Shown: positions 4,648-59,245 of the stretch, piece by piece
Layout: each line of letters begins with the position of its first letter
Position numbering within the stretch: position 1 is the first letter of the stretch
Origin: a virus
Direction: 5' to 3' (one strand)
IMG/VR virus record: IMGVR_UViG_3300030103_004875
DNA length: 64,000 nucleotides
The notes under the pieces: generated by a model
What the model was told of the DNA's origin: nothing
The model's database searches: none
What the model saw: the letters and a program-made list of their open reading frames with translations, nothing else
Made by a program: the position numbers and the translations under genes

Positions 4648-5496
4648 TTGATACTTCTTGATAATAATCAAATACTTCTTGCCAATATTTTTCAGACTAT
4701 GAAACAGGTGGATACTATTGATGAAAATATGCTAAGGCATATGGTTCTCAACACATACAGAATGTATAGATCCATGTTCAAAGACGAGTATGGAGAACTT
4801 GTAATCTGCCATGACTCCAGCAATTGTTGGAGAAAAGACCTATTTTCTTACTATAAGCAAAATAGGAAGACGAAGCAAGATGAATCTGATGTTGATTGGA
4901 AGAGTATATATGATGCTCTCCATGAAATTCGTACAGAAATACAACACAATTTCCCGTACAAGAATATTAAAGTTGACAGAGCAGAGGCTGACGACATCAT
5001 CGCGGTTATTTGTAAAGAGTATCATTCAAAAGAGAAAATTATAATTCTTTCTAATGATAAAGACTTCAAACAACTACAAAAATTTGAAAATGTTAGGCAA
5101 TATTCCTGTATCAAGAAAGATTATCTCATATGTGATGATCCTGATTTTTTTCTAGTTGATCATATTATTAGGGGGGATACCTCTGATGGTATCCCAAATA
5201 TCATGTCAGATGATGATACATTTGTAGTAAAAACTAAAAGACAAAAAAGATTAACTAAAGCCGTTATTTCTGATATTTTAGAAACGTATAACACAACTGG
5301 ATCACCTCCAGAATATTGCTCGGCGGGCTGGGATAGGAATGAAAAATTAATTGACTTGGATTCTGTACCTGATACAATACAGAAAGAAATTATTAACCAA
5401 TACGAAAATAATTCTCACGGAGACAGATCCAAAATTCTTAACTATATGATAGACAATAGACTTAAAAATCTTATAGAGAATCTTGGAGATTTCTGA
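4648..5496 (+). CDS. rnh: T4-type RNase H / 5'-3' flap exonuclease
   Basis: N-terminal ILLD, WRK..F..YK.NR, EADDII, SNDKDF.QL and GDTSDGIPN motifs. Confidence 0.92.
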   Translation: MILLDNNQILLANIFQTMKQVDTIDENMLRHMVLNTYRMYRSMFKDEYGELVICHDSSNCWRKDLFSYYKQNRKTKQDESDVDWKSIYDALHEIRTEIQHNFPYKNIKVDRAEADDIIAVICKEYHSKEKIIILSNDKDFKQLQKFENVRQYSCIKKDYLICDDPDFFLVDHIIRGDTSDGIPNIMSDDDTFVVKTKRQKRLTKAVISDILETYNTTGSPPEYCSAGWDRNEKLIDLDSVPDTIQKEIINQYENNSHGDRSKILNYMIDNRLKNLIENLGDF

Positions 5497-8016: not shown

Positions 8017-8418
8017 ATGGAAACTGAGGATGTCTTTAACGGACTGGGTATTGAAGTTCGACTGGAAGAAGAAGATGATTTTTTAATGGTTAAGGAGACA
8101 TTAACTCGAATGGGTGTCTCCTCCAGAAAAGAAAATAAATTATTCCAATCATGTCATATTCTTCATAAACGTGGAAGATATGCCATTATGCATTTCAAGG
8201 AACTATTCATTCTGGATGGATTGGAAAGTGATATATCGGAATCGGATGTTGGACGTAGGAATTTAATAGCCAAACTGGTAGATGAATGGGAACTCTGTGA
8301 AATCTTAAATCCCGAAAAAATCAAAGATCCAATTGCTAGTATGGGACAGATTAAAATAATCCCCCATAAAGATAAAAAGGATTGGGAACTGATACCTAAA
8401 TACCATATTGGAAAGTAA
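8017..8418 (+). CDS. regA: Translational repressor RegA
   Basis: DDFL.VKETLTR.G, LFQSCHILHKRGRY.I.HFKELF.LDG, W.L..KY.IG. Confidence 0.95.
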   Translation: METEDVFNGLGIEVRLEEEDDFLMVKETLTRMGVSSRKENKLFQSCHILHKRGRYAIMHFKELFILDGLESDISESDVGRRNLIAKLVDEWELCEILNPEKIKDPIASMGQIKIIPHKDKKDWELIPKYHIGK

Positions 8419-42706: not shown

Positions 42707-42719
42707 AAATTTATATATA

Positions 42720-42787
42720 GTGTACACTTAAAATTTAAGTGGATCACTCCTGCGCACGGGGATGCATATGCATCCCCGTGTTTTTTT
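42720..42787 (+). ncRNA. Candidate sRNA A carrying a 16S-3'-end-like (anti-SD) motif
   Basis: TATATATA 42712-42719, hairpin cacttaa/ttaagtg, TGGATCACTCCTGC 42740-42753, then terminator and T7. Confidence 0.45.
42755..42787 (+). terminator. Intrinsic terminator
   Basis: 26-nt perfect palindrome cacggggatgcatatgcatccccgtg followed by TTTTTTT. Confidence 0.85.
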
Positions 42788-42795
42788 GATAAATA
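42788..42795 (+). promoter_or_regulatory. Late promoter (GATAAATA) for the RuvC-like gene
   Basis: NATAAATA ending 5 nt before ATG 42801. Confidence 0.55.
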
Positions 42796-47872: not shown

Positions 47873-48131
47873 TTTCTTCTAAAGACTTTCTTATCCATAA
47901 CAAATCTGTTTTTATCTCTGCAAGATCTGTCATCAGTGTTGCACGAAAAGTTTCGCTGGTATCGAGTCGTGAATCTAAACTCACTATATCTTTTTCTATG
48001 AACTGTAATCTAGTGGAAAATGAAGCATCCTTTTGACTAATATAAGCCACAGCAGATCCAAAAGTAATGATCCAGCCTAGCACGGCACTTATTACAGAGA
48101 TCTTTATTCCCTGTTTATTAGTATCAGTCAT
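47862..48131 (-). CDS. Single-TM coiled-coil protein
   Basis: N-terminal TM helix followed by heptads. Confidence 0.6.
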   Translation of the reverse strand: MTDTNKQGIKISVISAVLGWIITFGSAVAYISQKDASFSTRLQFIEKDIVSLDSRLDTSETFRATLMTDLAEIKTDLLWIRKSLEENGR

Positions 48132-50694
48132 TTTTTAATTTACCTTTTTTGCGAGAGACTAAATATGGTGTTTTTGCACCGGGAGTACCCTCTATGTAGT
48201 TTTTTAGTAACTTATCTGTCCCTTCGTCTCCGGCTCCGTGCTCCTCACCTAAGCGATGTTTATTGTCTGCTCGATTCGATCTGACTGATCGTACTCTGAG
48301 ATTAGAATCTCCGTTATTGAGTGCGTTTCCATCCTTATGATCTATATCTTTTCCGTCACCTTTACGGGCTTTTCCCTTTTTAATCATTTTTCTTCTAGCA
48401 AGAACGCGATTTGATCTTTTCTTTCTTTGCTTCGCTTTCCCATGAAATGTTCTATACTCATGCTTATAATCTCTCTTTGAGGGATCATCTTGTTCGAAGA
48501 GTGCAGAAAAAGATTCATTCATTTCATCATCTTCCCTATCCTCTACCGTATCAAAGTCCGGTTTTTCGGGTAAAACTGGAATTTTAGTAGTTTTTCCATC
48601 AACTGTTATGACATTGAAAACTTCATCCTCCTGCATTTTGTTATTTGCATCACCACTCACTGAGATATCAAGGGAACTAGAAAGTTCTCTTAAAATTTCT
48701 TGAGGATTTTTTGTATAAAAATCTGAAAGCATTTCTGGAGTCATGATAAACGCCATATCACCATCTGGTTTTATATTGGGCTTATTTTGCTCAACAATCT
48801 CTAATTTTTTCCCTTTGAGTTCGAATCTGAATGTTGGTTGGGTAATTCTTCCTCTGCTTTTTGCCCTGATCCCGACATAAGTCTTAGGCATTAAACTTGA
48901 GACATAATTACCATCAACATCCCCTATTTCCTCAAACCCTGCGGGACTCAATAGGTGGGTTGCTGCTGCATCCGGATTATCTGCAAATGCTCTACTCCCA
49001 GTTAGTGCCTCGTGAACTAAATGTCTTTTGAAGTCCTCGTTATCAGATAAAAAGGTAGTGAAGTCTTGCTGTAGGTCTCTGGTGAGGGAACCCTTATACT
49101 TTTCCCAGTTGTACTTATCTTGAAGTTTACCATTCTTAAACATCTCTTGGAACCAAGGTTTGTCGCCGTGACGATCCATTGCTTCCTCTAAGTTTTTTGG
49201 ATCAATCATCTTATTTGGTAAAGATTTCAAAGATTTAGACACTTTCTTTGCTGCGGACTGCATAAGTTCATTATCTTGTGTGCCGATCGCTGAGGCGAGG
49301 TTCTCCAGCGTTCTAGCGGTTGTCTGAGCACTCTCGCTGGATAGTTGAATGTCACCTTCCATTTTAACGGATATCCGGTTGTCCCCACAAATTAAGTCTG
49401 TTTTTGGTTCTGGCCTACCGAATATACCAACTTCATCTGAGTGTTTCAGACTTCCTCTGCATTCTTCTGGTATATTTTGCACTGTCTTCTTTGCCATTCC
49501 AAAAACATCTTTACCAAACGCTTTCAGATTATTTCCTGCTAATTCATCTCTCTTTGCTAATGCTTCATCGCTAACACCTGCCGATTTTGCTGCGATATAG
49601 GCAATCGCCCATTCAAACTGTACACCTCTACCCTGAGTTATATTCTTTGCAGGACCGGGATACTCGACATTATCTGGGCTCATTGGGGGTTGAGTTGGCA
49701 TAAAAGGATCTAGTGCATCATACTCTGCTTGTGCTTGTTGCTCTGCTGCCGCTGCGATGTCTTCCTCACTCCCCGGATCTTCCGGAGAACCTTGTTCCGC
49801 TTCTTTTTTCTTGGCCTCTGCCTCTTTTTCAGTTTGTTTTTGATCTTTTACATCTTTCATCATATCAGATACGTCGCCAAATATTTCAATTGAAGTTGGT
49901 GTTTGCTTGAACTTCTTTTGATTTATTGCACCCTGAATGTCTGTCATAGTAGGCTTTGGTTTATCTGGGCCTCCCTTTAGAACAGAATCATCAACAGGAT
50001 CTGGTCGAACCACGACCTCTACGTTACCACTTTTCCTTTTCTGCACTAAGTACAGGTCAGGTGGTAGATATTTTGCTACTTCGTTTAGTAATTCGGGCTT
50101 TTCCATAAATTCGTCGAACTCCTGTTGATCAAACCAATCGAGATGTTCTAGATGTGTAGAGAGTGTTGAGTGAATATTTCTTACCTCTCGATCAGAAAGG
50201 TGTTTTGGCATAATAGATTTAAATGATGTCACACCACTCTTCGCTCGCTTTCTGGCCTCTGTTCCAGATGCACGTTCCACTCTATCATGAGAATCTGGAT
50301 CGCGGTGACCGGCAGATACTACGTTTACTGATTTAAGACCAGAGTGCTTTGCTAGAGCATCTGATTTTTTACTCATTTCCTCGTGTCTATCTGACCCCAC
50401 GACTAATGTTGCATGGGAGTATCCATTCTTAGCGGCATGTTCTGCGGCATGAAACATGTTTCTTACCTTTGGATGGGAAACAACATTATGACCCCTCAGA
50501 ACTTTCTTTGCTATACCGTGCTTAACGTCGGGTGGTAATGGGTTTTTCTTTTTGTCGTGAGATTGACTTAAATATACAGCATGATCCGCGTCAATTTTTT
50601 TGGCGTGATCCTTTACCGCATTTGCTAATTTCAGGTGACCAACATGTGGTGGGTTAAATCTACCAAATGTCATTACAAGGTGTTTGTCTGCCAT
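48124..50694 (-). CDS. Multidomain protein: cytidylyltransferase-like + PD-(D/E)xK-like + HNH
   Basis: TFGRFNPPH.GH, VGSDR, SAG.RDPD; central PKTDL..ISVK; C-terminal DIDHKDGN..NN..NLRV. Confidence 0.75.
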   Translation of the reverse strand: MADKHLVMTFGRFNPPHVGHLKLANAVKDHAKKIDADHAVYLSQSHDKKKNPLPPDVKHGIAKKVLRGHNVVSHPKVRNMFHAAEHAAKNGYSHATLVVGSDRHEEMSKKSDALAKHSGLKSVNVVSAGHRDPDSHDRVERASGTEARKRAKSGVTSFKSIMPKHLSDREVRNIHSTLSTHLEHLDWFDQQEFDEFMEKPELLNEVAKYLPPDLYLVQKRKSGNVEVVVRPDPVDDSVLKGGPDKPKPTMTDIQGAINQKKFKQTPTSIEIFGDVSDMMKDVKDQKQTEKEAEAKKKEAEQGSPEDPGSEEDIAAAAEQQAQAEYDALDPFMPTQPPMSPDNVEYPGPAKNITQGRGVQFEWAIAYIAAKSAGVSDEALAKRDELAGNNLKAFGKDVFGMAKKTVQNIPEECRGSLKHSDEVGIFGRPEPKTDLICGDNRISVKMEGDIQLSSESAQTTARTLENLASAIGTQDNELMQSAAKKVSKSLKSLPNKMIDPKNLEEAMDRHGDKPWFQEMFKNGKLQDKYNWEKYKGSLTRDLQQDFTTFLSDNEDFKRHLVHEALTGSRAFADNPDAAATHLLSPAGFEEIGDVDGNYVSSLMPKTYVGIRAKSRGRITQPTFRFELKGKKLEIVEQNKPNIKPDGDMAFIMTPEMLSDFYTKNPQEILRELSSSLDISVSGDANNKMQEDEVFNVITVDGKTTKIPVLPEKPDFDTVEDREDDEMNESFSALFEQDDPSKRDYKHEYRTFHGKAKQRKKRSNRVLARRKMIKKGKARKGDGKDIDHKDGNALNNGDSNLRVRSVRSNRADNKHRLGEEHGAGDEGTDKLLKNYIEGTPGAKTPYLVSRKKGKLKND

Positions 50695-50710
50695 AGTGCA
50701 TTCTCCACCA

Positions 50711-50718
50711 TATTTATA
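50711..50718 (-). promoter_or_regulatory. T4 late promoter TATAAATA
   Basis: Exact consensus on the - strand, followed by GGAG SD and ATG 50694. Confidence 0.7.
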
Positions 50719-50752
50719 AAAAAAATAGGAAGGATGATGCCATCCTTCCTAT
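50718..50752 (-). terminator. Intrinsic terminator
   Basis: 12-bp stem ataggaaggatg/catccttcctat with 4-nt loop, followed by a U-tract on the - strand. Confidence 0.85.
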
Positions 50753-50809
50753 GGACCCGAAATATGTTATTGGATCACCTCCTGCTCTTGAGTATCCGTA
50801 GGTCCATTA
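50718..50809 (-). ncRNA. Candidate sRNA B displaying a 14-nt complement of the 16S rRNA 3' end
   Basis: AATATATA box at 50811-50818; closing stem AUGGACC/GGUCCAU; AGGAGGUGAUCCAA at 50783-50770; terminator. Confidence 0.55.
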
Positions 50810-50816
50810 GTATATA

Positions 50817-51149
50817 TTATTTTTTAGCAACGAAACGGAAATTTTTGTGGTGTTTTCTTTTTCCAGACATAACTTCATATAGAGCAGACTTGGTTAAATT
50901 GTGATCTCGGCAAAATTCTAAAACATTTTCTATCTCAAAAACCTCCCCTTCTCGCTCAAAAACAAGTATTCTTCGCTCTGGGATTTTTTCTAAAGTCTCC
51001 CATTGAAAATATCTTCCCGTTTTATGAAATTCTCCACCATAAGTCTTACAGAAGTTATTCCTGTGAAAATTTGCACGAGAATCCTCGTTAACTTTCACCC
51101 ATGTTCTAGTATTTTTTTTATTTACATTTTTTGGATTGTAATCTGACAT
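50817..51149 (-). CDS. Hypothetical protein with HTH/NUMOD-like C-terminus
   Basis: FCRDHNL.KSALY.V..GKRKHHK pattern. Confidence 0.55.
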   Translation of the reverse strand: MSDYNPKNVNKKNTRTWVKVNEDSRANFHRNNFCKTYGGEFHKTGRYFQWETLEKIPERRILVFEREGEVFEIENVLEFCRDHNLTKSALYEVMSGKRKHHKNFRFVAKK

Positions 51150-51151
51150 TA

Positions 51152-51958
51152 TTATTCTAATCCATTTTTATATGGGGGTTTGTTTTCTTTTACTCTTTCG
51201 TATCTAGGTTTTCCCCATCGATCATACCATTTTTTAACAATTTTTTCTATAGGTTCGTTTGTGCATGGGGAATAGTACACACCTCTTTTTTTGCCATGAT
51301 TCATGGACGATTTAATTCCCTTTGCTTTATTGTACGCTGCAATCCTTCTCATTCTGGGATTACTTCCTGCGCCAAATCGAGAGGACGGAATCTCCACGTG
51401 GTTATTTCTCATCCAATCGAGCATTTCATGGTATTGTTTGTCCGAAATGTGCTCATGTCCATATCCCTTTGTGTAACCAAGGAACTTATAGACTCGATTA
51501 TACTGAACACCTTTACCATTTATGGAAGTTGTCACAATTCCCTTAAGTTCGTCACCATAATGATTTCTATATTGTTCGGAAACAGTTCTTGATGTTGCAA
51601 GCATGGCAATCAATTTACCTATGTTCCAATACCAAGAAATAGGTTGTAGTCCAACACATGTGGATAAATCAACATAATTTCTAAGCACTGTTCCTTTTTC
51701 TGATGGATCCTTTGGAAAGTTCAGGTAATCATCTCGAACACCAAGATTAATAACGGGACTAGAAATACCCATAACACCAATTAATGCTTCATCATGCCAC
51801 ACAGCGTACCCGAATTTTCTTCCGGGTGCAGGCCGAGTTGTTGCTTTACTTGTGTGCTTAAGAATATCGTAGAGATCGGAAACTGGAATTTTTGATATTG
51901 TTATTTGGTTGGGATCAATCTCTAGCACATCTTGAGTATATGTGATTTGATTAACCAA
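51152..51958 (-). CDS. DUF4338/DruA-like protein
   Basis: IG...I.SP...L..RD, C...QP....GKLIA.LA.S, TTS..GK..QYNR and LGYTKG.G motifs. Confidence 0.7.
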   Translation of the reverse strand: MVNQITYTQDVLEIDPNQITISKIPVSDLYDILKHTSKATTRPAPGRKFGYAVWHDEALIGVMGISSPVINLGVRDDYLNFPKDPSEKGTVLRNYVDLSTCVGLQPISWYWNIGKLIAMLATSRTVSEQYRNHYGDELKGIVTTSINGKGVQYNRVYKFLGYTKGYGHEHISDKQYHEMLDWMRNNHVEIPSSRFGAGSNPRMRRIAAYNKAKGIKSSMNHGKKRGVYYSPCTNEPIEKIVKKWYDRWGKPRYERVKENKPPYKNGLE

Positions 51959-58450: not shown

Positions 58451-58496
58451 TATATATCATTTTCATATATAAGGGGAACCCGAGGGATATCAAACT

Positions 58497-59210: not shown

Positions 59211-59245
59211 TTCATATATAACAAGTAACCCTTAAGGAAACTAAC

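Follow-up and report, generated by a model that had tools for sequence, protein, structure and literature searches.

A conserved non-coding unit carrying a 13-nt complement of the 16S rRNA 3' tail in a marine T4-like phage lineage

Introduction

Why would a phage carry, in a short unit between two of its genes, a perfect complement of the 3' tail of bacterial 16S rRNA that precedes no start codon? The question was raised by a minus-strand unit, designated RNA1, in the window (the whole 64,000-nt stretch of viral DNA analysed here, IMG/VR record IMGVR_UViG_3300030103_004875), and the original prediction had taken this unit to be a candidate small RNA that might trap 30S subunits through their anti-Shine–Dalgarno (anti-SD) sequence. 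Phages retune host ribosomes with proteins, among them bS21 copies of their own and, in T4, the RegA and RegB systems; our literature search returned no account of a phage RNA with a direct action on the 16S anti-SD. RNA1 belongs to a marine T4-like phage lineage, and it was read here, from sequence, as a non-coding RNA element that may pair with the anti-SD of the 30S subunit, a reading to which a probability of about 0.5 was given.

Layout of the RNA1 unit

RNA1 occupied positions 50718-50818 of the minus strand and displayed the structure AU-rich box, 7-bp closing stem (P1), AGGAGGTGATCCA(A), and terminator of 10-12 bp with U8. Its components and the adjoining signals of the next gene were as follows:

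50818-50810, minus strand: AU-rich box AATATATAC, just 5' of the closing stem
50807-50801, minus strand: 5' arm of P1, AUGGACC, pairing with 50757-50751
50792-50797, minus strand: inner 16S-tail-like segment GGAUAC (followed by a further C in relatives), recognized from the folding of all versions
50783-50770, minus strand: 14-mer AGGAGGTGATCCAA, the loop motif
50771-50783, minus strand: invariant 13-mer AGGAGGUGAUCCA, complement of 16S nt 1528-1540
50758-50770, minus strand: variable A/U-rich 3' part of the loop, differing in length and sequence per sub-lineage
50757-50751, minus strand: 3' arm of P1, GGUCCAU, partner of 50807-50801
50718-50750, minus strand: intrinsic terminator, arms 50750-50741 and 50736-50727, U8 at 50725-50718
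50718-50711, minus strand: T4-type late promoter TATAAATA of the next gene, delimiting RNA1 and lying outside the unit
50709-50703, minus strand: SD GGUGGAG of the next gene, with ATG at 50694

The box, the stem, the motif and the terminator all lay at the minus-strand positions given in the original prediction, the loop motif was indeed a perfect 13-14-nt complement of the 16S 3' tail (14 nt with A50770, against UUGG-type 16S), and the next gene had, as claimed, its own promoter and SD beyond the terminator. The 12-mer core of the motif was present in a single exact copy within the window, and the 3' part of the loop contained no conserved start codon or ORF. The terminator was composed of the stem arms AGGAAGGAUG and CAUCCUUCCU, the loop GCAU and then U8. 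The gene behind RNA1 encoded an 856-aa cytidylyltransferase-HNH protein, and its late promoter, SD and ATG (50692-50718) were unchanged in relatives; RNA1 appears to be insulated from this gene by a strong terminator plus the late promoter belonging to the gene itself.

The AU-rich box overlapped the TAA stop (50819-50817) of an upstream 110-aa ORF and differed from the TATAAATA late consensus, and inspection by eye of its surroundings revealed neither a sigma-70 -35 element nor a MotA box at proper spacing. The sequence ATATA(A/C) was located 1-3 nt 5' of P1 in 14 of 14 versions of the unit (see below), at a variable position relative to the last codons of the upstream ORF (after, across or inside them), and ATATATAA boxes were also found about 25-30 nt 5' of two real start codons (58465 and 59214). 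The box is either promoter-like or a processing site.

Conservation among relatives

Fourteen distinct versions of RNA1 were recovered from metagenomic relatives, in which the flanking 856-aa protein was 94% to 44% identical to that of the window; in IMG/VR, a single-protein scan with this protein gave no match and an alignment-based scan succeeded. In all relatives bearing it, RNA1 lay 3' of a gene whose product resembled the DNA-binding tail of HNH homing endonucleases. The 13-mer was identical in all 14 versions and the terminator covaried (see below), so that motif and terminator proved to be conserved in related contigs, as would be expected of the small RNA originally proposed. The run of 13 invariant columns had p = 2e-5 by permutation, and in distant relatives the intergenic sequence, with the motif and the T-run/late promoter set aside, was 33-49% identical to that of the window; conservation of the motif exceeds chance.

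This 13-mer was the only invariant content of the loop, and the edges of the invariant block were the edges of 16S complementarity (nt 1528-1540): the flanking bases, which would face non-complementary 16S positions, varied between C and U on the 5' side and between A and G on the 3' side, the G at this 3' flank being one that would match CUGG-type 16S.

Searches beyond these versions gave the following results: (i) L376 and L382, two relatives with 36-38% protein identity, had neither RNA1 nor the 110-aa gene; (ii) the cytidylyltransferase locus of cyanophage S-RIM50 had no spacer and no such element; (iii) GenBank phages gave no DNA match to 49700-51700; (iv) among the matches listed from 14-mer scans of IMG/VR and metagenomes, none outside the family had the RNA1 layout, and these matches fell within coding sequences (GGDP codons) or were true SDs; and (v) no Rfam family (including Ms_IGR-5, RF02471) matched any part of the window at its gathering threshold, and 50600-50900 gave chance-level matches only (E 0.4-10).

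RNA structure, motif accessibility and candidate protein partners

Taken by itself, the window copy had a modest fold z-score (-2.3), and structural support for RNA1 came from covariation rather than from this single-copy score. Five core pairs of P1 were 100% paired in 13 sequences, with compensatory changes at two pairs (AU<->UA in four sequences and CG->UA in one). The terminator stem had a wholly different sequence in four sub-lineages and always kept its pairing, with changes on both sides at all 10 pairs, and every version had a 10-12-bp GC-rich stem followed by U6-U8. Taken together, the two helices had 95% of cells paired versus 75% in shuffles (none of 500 shuffles reached 95%) and double changes in 12 of their 15 pairs, and this signal collapsed when the pairing partners were slid. 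P1 and the terminator framed a loop of 31-45 nt across versions.

Three types of inner structure were predicted within this loop: (i) in class A versions (window, L001-L007, and L158), GGAUACC paired with GGU(G)AUCC of the motif, giving the helix P2, a small SD:anti-SD-like duplex that left CAGGA looped; (ii) in class B versions, GGAUACC was replaced by a downstream ACUCC, which paired with GGAG (4 bp); and (iii) L253 and L373 had no inner helix. The mean unpaired probability of the motif in the predicted folds was 0.45-0.62, with 3-7 of the 13 bases mostly paired; half of the motif was masked by an internal helix in most versions, and this was a different half in each structural class. Masking by a weak internal 16S-like partner suggests that access to the motif is gated. 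An antiterminator, in which the motif would pair with the 3' terminator arm, which is rich in pyrimidines, was considered and rejected, as it offered 3-6 bp only, was not conserved and was kinetically disfavoured.

The SD:anti-SD-like helix of class A also bears on the idea that RNA1 binds a protein instead of rRNA, acting as a decoy or operator that mimics an initiation region without its start codon (an SD with a spacer that is rich in A/U and contains UAA); the translational repressor RegA of the phage, the ribosomal proteins bS21 or S1, or a CsrA-type GGA binder could be the target. A RegA homologue was encoded in the window (PF01818, E = 1e-39, 8017-8418), bS21 is often encoded by aquatic phages (PMC9976891), and for the OLE RNA, bS21 binding has been reported to involve an imitation of the SD-ASD duplex (PMC12054373). 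The bS21 and RegB genes were not found among the ORFs of the window that were scanned (a partial set; small ORFs in the case of bS21). The inner helix, however, was not conserved, since class B used another 4-bp partner and L253/L373 had none; class B lacked the A/U-rich spacer; and 3-8 specific bases suffice for such proteins, against the 13 that are invariant here. As for CsrA/RsmA, RNAs that titrate these proteins have several GGA hairpin loops; RNA1 had one conserved GGA loop, in class A only, its other GGAs falling within the non-conserved terminator stems, and since only one GGA was conserved, RNA1 is not a CsrA sponge. A protein partner was accordingly given little credence.

Coding potential and translation signals

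Neither the window nor any of the 14 versions had an ATG, GTG or TTG 3-13 nt 3' of AGGAGG, in agreement with the original prediction that no start codon stands at SD spacing. The leaderless 10-codon ORF MDLRILKSRR, which had been named as the only ORF of the unit, does exist in the window, yet as a functional gene it was rejected: it was interrupted in L003 by an in-frame TAG after four codons, before the motif, and the motif was read in another frame in L005-L008, L252, and L254. The suggestion that RNA1 holds ribosomes terminating at the UGA of this mini-ORF cannot hold in general, since the mini-ORF was lost or frame-shifted in relatives. An ORF starting at a non-canonical codon just 3' of the motif, the outcome that would have spoken for a ribosome-binding site, did not occur either, the ATA-started frame of 18 codons meeting immediate stops in L002 and L003 and not being conserved. 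As there was no start at SD spacing and the frame across the motif differed, RNA1 is neither a ribosome-binding site nor a recoding site.

SD-like elements stimulate +1 frameshifting in prfB and bypassing in T4 gene 60, and several features of the window copy recall such signals. The motif UGA was in frame with the upstream 110-aa ORF in the window and L001-L003, the upstream ORF of L253 was called right up to this UGA, and ATA stood 7 nt after AGGAGG in the window; the unit might thus be the ribosome-binding site of a tiny or non-canonical ORF, or might act on ribosomes arriving from the 110-aa ORF through an SD-driven frameshift, bypass or termination at the UGA. The frame shifts and early stops described above, together with the missing start codons, speak against both, a fixed frame relation between upstream ORF, SD-like element and downstream continuation was absent across sub-lineages, and there was no continuous downstream frame because the terminator and the promoter intervene. 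A translation signal of this sort was regarded as extremely improbable.

The genes of the phage themselves used ordinary SDs: GGAG/GAGG preceded 30% of ORFs versus 7.6% in background. Leaderless phage messages were not indicated, and the notion that RNA1 would favour them found no support; the gene directly behind RNA1 also had a short SD.

Complementarity with the 16S tail and proposed ribosome docking

The 16S tail GAUCACCUCCU has been reported to be conserved across bacteria (PMC5732282). In a comparison aimed at inferring the host, the porin gene of the window had no close relative among the genome contigs searched. The duplex of the motif with the 16S tail had a predicted energy of -20 to -27 kcal/mol, versus -6 to -9 for the real SDs of the phage, and RNA1-16S binding was predicted to be favourable even with P1 opened, at ddG values of -6 to -10 (lower bounds for binding with P1 opened, since RNAcofold does not allow for intermolecular pairing within a closed loop).

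In the proposed mechanism, RNA1 would be a conserved non-coding element of about 85-95 nt, produced either as a stand-alone small RNA or as the 3' portion, processed or terminal, of the upstream operon's transcript. [quoted passage not shown] Two variants were distinguished: (i) RNA1 may act in trans as a ribosome-docking or trapping RNA that modulates SD-dependent initiation, a possibility put forward tentatively; and (ii) RNA1 may act in cis, the bound 30S subunit shielding or marking the transcript end or serving as a standby site on read-through transcripts, which was considered rather doubtful.

Of the small RNA originally proposed, the conserved, structured and ORF-free unit was retained, with its long 16S complement as the function-defining feature; the motif is not fully exposed, half of it being masked in most versions. 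We infer discrete transcription, 30S binding and an effect of such binding. The sole RNA-library contig covering RNA1 was 306 nt long with a depth of about 3, started inside the box and continued past the terminator into the downstream ORF; as an assembled contig, which shows neither ends nor strand, it was indistinguishable from DNA carry-over. Among the RNA runs analysed, X19 and X20 gave low-depth contigs only, and X21 and X22 gave none. Several considerations run against docking or trapping: because the phage relies on SDs, blocking the anti-SD strongly and globally would impair its own translation as well; pairing of the 3'-terminal CCA of the motif would require invasion of the foot of helix 45; and if the box were a promoter from which transcription starts 6 nt further on, as in T4, the RNA would lack the outer P1 pairs.

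A second unit, RNA2, and its bearing on the possible partner of RNA1

A unit with the same layout as RNA1 was identified elsewhere in the window:

42708-42795, plus strand: RNA2, composed of the box TATATATA, a hairpin, the motif UGGAUCAC-UCCUGC, a terminator, and GATAAATA

The RNA2 motif resembled the 16S tail imperfectly and was likewise imperfectly complementary to the 13-mer, and the covariance model of RNA1 matched RNA2 through box, terminator and promoter (39 bits). A homologue carrying UGGAUCACUAUCCUGC was found in an L005-type phage (L130/L256). Scans with RNA2 patterns revealed no further family members. Two other sequences were discarded as chance matches: a 12-mer in G001, which lay within an ATPase-like coding sequence, and a third 16S-like 13-mer at 5297-5311 (plus strand), which lay within a coding sequence and was not conserved in the 82%-identical relative L260.

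RNA2 might be the true partner of RNA1: the two would form a sense-antisense duplex of 13-14 bp, small transcripts or operon 3' ends regulating each other's stability or activity, and the resemblance to SD and anti-SD would be secondary. The shared box-hairpin-motif-terminator-late-promoter layout, conserved in a second lineage, fits this idea, as do the predicted RNA1-RNA2 duplexes of -25 and -23 kcal/mol and the estimated chance, about 0.01 or less for the window, of a 14-nt intergenic near-complement beside a terminator. The pairing, however, was broken mid-way in both lineages and in different manners (bulged G versus 1x2 internal loop), the RNA1 G at the break being nevertheless invariant; the RNA1 flank before AGGAGG varied (GC, UC or AU) opposite a constant UCCUGC in both RNA2 lineages; and RNA2 was present in only two of about six sub-lineages, most contigs being too short to tell. 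The centre of RNA2 differed between the two lineages (deletion versus UA) and RNA1 was unchanged, the opposite of what a private pair should show. Since RNA2 changed and RNA1 did not, RNA1 is constrained by something invariant, a description that the 16S tail fits. A private RNA pair was judged unlikely.

The two units could instead form a module aimed at the anti-SD of the host, in which RNA1 would clamp the 16S tail and RNA2 would serve as antidote, timer or decoy; RNA1 would then divert initiation, or shield the tail from anti-SD-cutting ribonuclease toxins deployed by the host in abortive infection. This was regarded as a quite unlikely, speculative extension.

Similar units in two places could also point to a DNA-level site, TGGATCAC(C)TCCTG on the plus strand, that would serve recombination or homing or be bound by a protein, for which the neighbouring NUMOD-like protein of 110 aa is a candidate. 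The copies at 42.7 and 50.8 kb were direct repeats on the same strand though their flanking genes were opposed, and the constant place of RNA1 behind a gene resembling a homing endonuclease tail agrees with such a site. The covariation of P1 and the fixed place of the motif between box and terminator, however, point to a transcript; the second copy was non-identical with a varying centre; the unconserved coding copy at 5297-5311 shows that such matches can be chance; and there were no palindromic or repeated half-sites typical of operators. A DNA site was therefore held to be highly improbable.

Implications

RNA1 is a compact and strongly conserved candidate with a simple handle, a predicted transcript of about 90 nt with a 13-nt motif. 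Should it bind ribosomes in trans, it would be a new way of taking over translation and a natural, tunable blocker of the anti-SD; should it act in cis, the STAB-SD principle (see below), described for Gram-positive mRNAs, would extend to marine T4-like phages and to RNAs that stand alone or form a 3' end. The presence of the 16S-tail-like unit RNA2 alongside it adds interest in either case, and the two-RNA module, if true, would amount to phage-host RNA warfare of a kind not described so far.

Comparison with known systems

In the STAB-SD of Bacillus thuringiensis cry3A mRNA, an orphan SD binds the 30S subunit via the 16S 3' end with no initiation (PMC4113751). RNA1 likewise is an SD-like complement of the 16S 3' end that has no start codon, its 30S pairing being predicted. 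A similar polypurine 5' stabiliser was reportedly described in early RNA of Bacillus phage SP82 by Hue, Cohen and Bechhofer in 1995. The STAB-SD and SP82 elements measure about 9 nt, are found close to the 5' end of a long mRNA that is translated, and counter RNase J1 in cis, whereas RNA1 presents a 13-14-nt complement in a loop closed by a covarying stem; because its terminator and the promoter of the next gene follow directly, there is no obvious downstream message for it to protect, though the one low-depth RNA-library contig does join the unit to the downstream ORF.

The extended SD of rpsU (bS21) mRNA in Flavobacteriia forms stable 30S-mRNA complexes even without initiator tRNA (PMC9976891). 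RNA1 shares with it an unusually long motif, and in rpsU it is the information content that is functional, not just strength. Unlike RNA1, however, the rpsU SD precedes a start codon and autoregulates its gene in hosts that otherwise ignore SDs, whereas the genes of the RNA1 phage use ordinary short ones.

The class A helix of RNA1 imitates an SD:anti-SD duplex as does P6 of OLE, an RNA of about 600 nt from Bacillota whose P6 is bound by bS21 (PMC12054373); within the RNA1 family, it is the SD strand that is conserved and not the inner helix. Finally, among ribosome-associated ncRNAs, the Haloferax Val-tRNA fragment is reported to bind the small subunit, where it is in competition with mRNA (PMC5711459); it differs from RNA1 in binding other than via the anti-SD and in belonging to a host stress response instead of being phage-encoded.

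Layout and conservation of RNA1

RNA1 (the minus-strand intergenic unit at 50718-50818) occupied a 122-nt spacer between a 110-aa ORF (50817-51149) and an 856-aa gene (48124-50694), both on the minus strand, and every sequence feature described in the original prediction was recovered in place. The features, from sequence reading, were as follows:
50819-50817, minus strand: stop codon TAA of the 110-aa ORF, overlapping the AU-rich box
50818-50810, minus strand: AU-rich box AATATATAC
50807-50801, minus strand: 5′ arm AUGGACC of the closing stem P1
between the P1 arms, minus strand: 43-nt loop enclosed by P1
50783-50770, minus strand: super-Shine-Dalgarno (super-SD) motif AGGAGGTGATCCAA, inside the P1 loop
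50757-50751, minus strand: 3′ arm GGUCCAU of P1
50750-50741 and 50736-50727, minus strand: terminator arms, with loop GCAU and U8 at 50725-50718
50718-50711, minus strand: T4-type late promoter TATAAATA, 3′ of the terminator
50709-50703, minus strand: GGUGGAG, followed by the ATG of the 856-aa gene at 50694

Relatives were found by protein search with the 856-aa product, contig retrieval, and scanning of IMG/VR and metagenomes by pattern and by profile, yielding 14 distinct spacer versions; the adjoining 856-aa-type proteins displayed 94, 87, 82, 70, 67-68, 53-55, and 44% identity. All relatives with the unit shared the gene order Cas4-like exonuclease, (DruA-like gene), 108-122-aa NUMOD-like ORF, unit, and 856-aa gene. 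Both the small NUMOD-like ORF and the unit were absent from homologues at 36-38% protein identity, and the unit was absent from the cyanophage S-RIM50 locus.

The motif, proposed to be conserved in related phage contigs, was indeed so: the 13-mer, AGGAGGTGATCCA, was unchanged in every spacer version, the 13 consecutive invariant columns having p = 2e-5 by column shuffling. Distant versions had 33-49% identity to the window outside the motif block and the T-run/late promoter. The base 5′ of the invariant block was C (U in contigs L253 and L373), the base 3′ of it was A (G in the L005 type), and the 3′ part of the loop varied in length and sequence, being different in each sub-lineage. The invariant block was the exact complement of GAUCACCUCCU plus two bases whose predicted partners lie at the foot of helix 45; 16S numbering and the helix assignment follow E. 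coli 16S rRNA. Given this exact complement and the varying flanks, the edges of the conserved block coincided with those of 16S complementarity. GAUCACCUCCU is reported to be conserved across bacteria (PMC5732282).

The predicted duplex of RNA1 with the 16S tail had -20 to -27 kcal/mol, compared with -6 to -9 kcal/mol for the SDs of the phage's own genes, and pairing was still favorable by -6 to -10 kcal/mol when P1 had to open, a lower bound since the program could not put a helix within a closed loop. Pairing of the 13-mer with the anti-SD of the 30S subunit would be the best explanation of the unit (probability about 0.5), its outcome being either (i) a trans-acting trap or modulator or (ii) a cis-acting docking site.

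Structure and covariation

The minimum free energy fold of the window copy recovered the closing stem and the terminator, with a z-score of -2.3, modest for one sequence. The spacer versions served to build a covariance model and were then realigned with it; this check, proposed in the original prediction, supported both helices by covariation. The five-pair P1 core was paired in 13/13 sequences, with two-sided changes in two core pairs (four sequences with U-A in place of A-U, and one with U-A in place of C-G), and the terminator had double changes at 10/10 pairs. Pairing over all cells was 95% vs 75% in shuffles (0/500 shuffles as high), and it fell to 39-60% when partners were slid by 1-3 columns. 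This covariation indicates that selection acts on RNA1 as a folded strand whose transcription runs in the direction of the flanking genes, which speaks against a DNA site, a rather improbable reading under which the invariant block would act as DNA. The 12-mer core of the motif had a single exact copy across the window.

Predicted folds of all versions masked the motif in two ways, plus an L253 type with the motif largely open: (i) in class A (window, L001-L007, and L158), upstream GGAUACC, resembling 16S GGAUCACC with one base fewer, paired with GGU(G)AUCC, leaving the 3′ half masked and CAGGA in a loop, and (ii) in class B (L008, L157, L252, and L254), downstream ACUCC paired with GGAG, leaving the 5′ half masked. 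These models suggest that a weak internal mimic of the anti-SD gates access to the motif; because the intramolecular partner varied, it did not explain the invariance of the 13 bases.

Coding potential and SD usage

Cryptic translation or recoding, by which the motif would serve a hidden reading frame, was the least probable reading. The predicted lack of a start codon at SD spacing held in all spacer versions, none having ATG/GTG/TTG 3-13 nt 3′ of AGGAGG. The predicted 10-codon ORF was present in the window but was not conserved: it was broken by TAG in L003, and the motif fell in another frame in L005-L008, L252, and L254. An ATA-started frame met an immediate stop in L002 and L003. In L253, the upstream ORF extended to UGA within the motif, which was not general among versions. 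The tiny-ORF reading was rejected for these missing starts and unkept frames, and the recoding reading for the shift of frame across the motif between sub-lineages.

GGAG or GAGG was found at -20 to -4 of 30% of 66 coding-strand ORFs vs 7.6% background, and GGUGGAG of the 856-aa gene was conserved in relatives. The host therefore uses SD-anti-SD pairing; the phage SDs were all short, making the 13-mer a clear outlier. The suggested gain through leaderless phage messages was made less likely by this SD usage, under which an unrestrained global anti-SD block would be costly for the phage.

Transcription

An ATATA(A/C) box was kept 1-3 nt 5′ of the stem, irrespective of whether it followed, spanned, or lay inside the 3′ end of the upstream ORF. 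ATATATAA boxes also preceded two genes (58465-58472 and 59214-59221, plus strand, ~25-30 nt 5′ of start codons), which favors a promoter-like role for the unit's box; with a start 6 nt 3′ of it, the outer P1 pairs would drop out of the RNA. An AU-rich RNase E-type processing site was an equally good reading. The ATATATAA boxes resembled the unit's box and could represent another class of promoter alongside TATAAATA, which lay at 50718-50711 (minus strand) and 59691 (plus strand), in each case 5′ of a start codon.

Fragments of the region were present in two marine metatranscriptome runs of one study, and one 306-nt contig (L001-like variant, depth ~3) ran from inside the box through unit and terminator to 178 nt into the downstream ORF, although such assembled RNA-library contigs show neither ends nor strand and DNA carry-over was possible for this one. 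Transcription of the unit is plausible, with a discrete small RNA as a candidate only.

In T4, late transcription starts 6 nt after the promoter box. With the same start after TATAAATA, the 5′ end of the 856-aa gene's late mRNA would fall within the conserved GGUGGAG, giving an 11-nt leader with a partial SD only.

A second unit, RNA2

RNA2 (42708-42795, plus strand) had the layout of RNA1: TATATATA box, hairpin, UGGAUCAC-UCCUGC, terminator, and GATAAATA. The RNA1 covariance model detected it at 39 bits via the common box, terminator, and promoter. Its homologue in L005-type phage (contigs L130, 7445-7535, and L256) contained UGGAUCACUAUCCUGC, with the center differing by a UA insertion; no RNA2 was found in other sub-lineages, for which mostly short contigs were examined. 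Each of the two RNA2 motifs copied the 16S 3′ tail and complemented RNA1, imperfectly in both respects, with predicted RNA1-RNA2 duplexes of -25 and -23 kcal/mol. Conservation of RNA1 through pairing with RNA2 was nevertheless unlikely, if the strongest of the alternatives: the RNA2 center differed between lineages while RNA1 was unchanged, the G of RNA1 bulged in this pairing was invariant, and the variable 5′ flank of RNA1 was not followed by RNA2. A changed RNA2 center beside a constant RNA1 argues that RNA1 would be held by an external, invariant partner. A further 13-nt identity to the 16S tail, CTGGATCACCTCCAG at 5297-5311 (plus strand) inside a 282-aa ORF, was probably chance because it was not kept in the 82%-identical relative L260.

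Phage and gene neighborhood

Judged by its genes, the window derives from a T4-like myovirus, which occurs in marine metagenomes; no DNA-level relative of the region was found among GenBank phages. It encoded a gp43-type family-B DNA polymerase (~50% identity to cyanophage polymerases), a clamp-loader subunit, ThyX, RNR, and a RegA translational repressor (8017-8418, plus strand; PF01818, E = 1e-39; T4 RegA family). With this RegA homologue, the phage owns a protein binding ribosome-binding regions, as a protein decoy or operator could use, a reading that we consider improbable. The A/U-rich, UAA-containing spacer 3′ of the class A super-SD was loosely like RegA-type targets.

The 110-aa protein had similarity only to the C-terminal NUMOD-like DNA-binding part of HNH homing endonucleases. 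This ORF (108-122 aa) lacked the nuclease domain and was stably kept 5′ of the unit in all relatives with the unit, which points to domestication of the gene and not to a homing-endonuclease remnant in decay. The 856-aa protein had a cytidylyltransferase-like domain joined to an HNH domain.

Comparison with known systems

The 14-mer of RNA1, again lacking a start codon at SD spacing, was found in other IMG/VR phage contigs, among the matches listed: L061 (8758-8771), L035 (2126-2139), L023, L056, L116, and L016 (8333-8346). It was followed by a terminator-like hairpin in L061, and by a hairpin plus a real SD and ATG 30-55 nt further in the others. Such copies may represent STAB-SD-like or standby elements of unrelated phages.

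No Rfam family matched the unit, and no phage RNA acting on the anti-SD was found described in the literature searched. Comparative evidence confirmed the unit as an RNA element that is conserved, structured, and free of ORFs, with the 13-nt complement of the 16S tail as the feature under selection. If it forms with RNA2 a two-RNA module acting on ribosomes in trans, there would be a real chance of something new. Related themes were (i) the extended SD of Flavobacterial rpsU, forming stable complexes independent of tRNA (PMC9976891), (ii) OLE RNA, with an SD-ASD duplex mimic bound by bS21 (PMC12054373), and (iii) ribosome-associated ncRNAs (PMC5711459). The nearest established mechanism is STAB-SD on cry3A mRNA, an mRNA-stabilizing orphan SD through which a 30S subunit is held on the message by pairing with the 16S 3′ end (PMC4113751). 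The unit shared the defining orphan SD but may differ from STAB-SD in the defining 5′ UTR position, since it is followed by a terminator that is conserved and by a promoter of its own for the next gene; it is best classed with orphan-SD, ribosome-docking elements.
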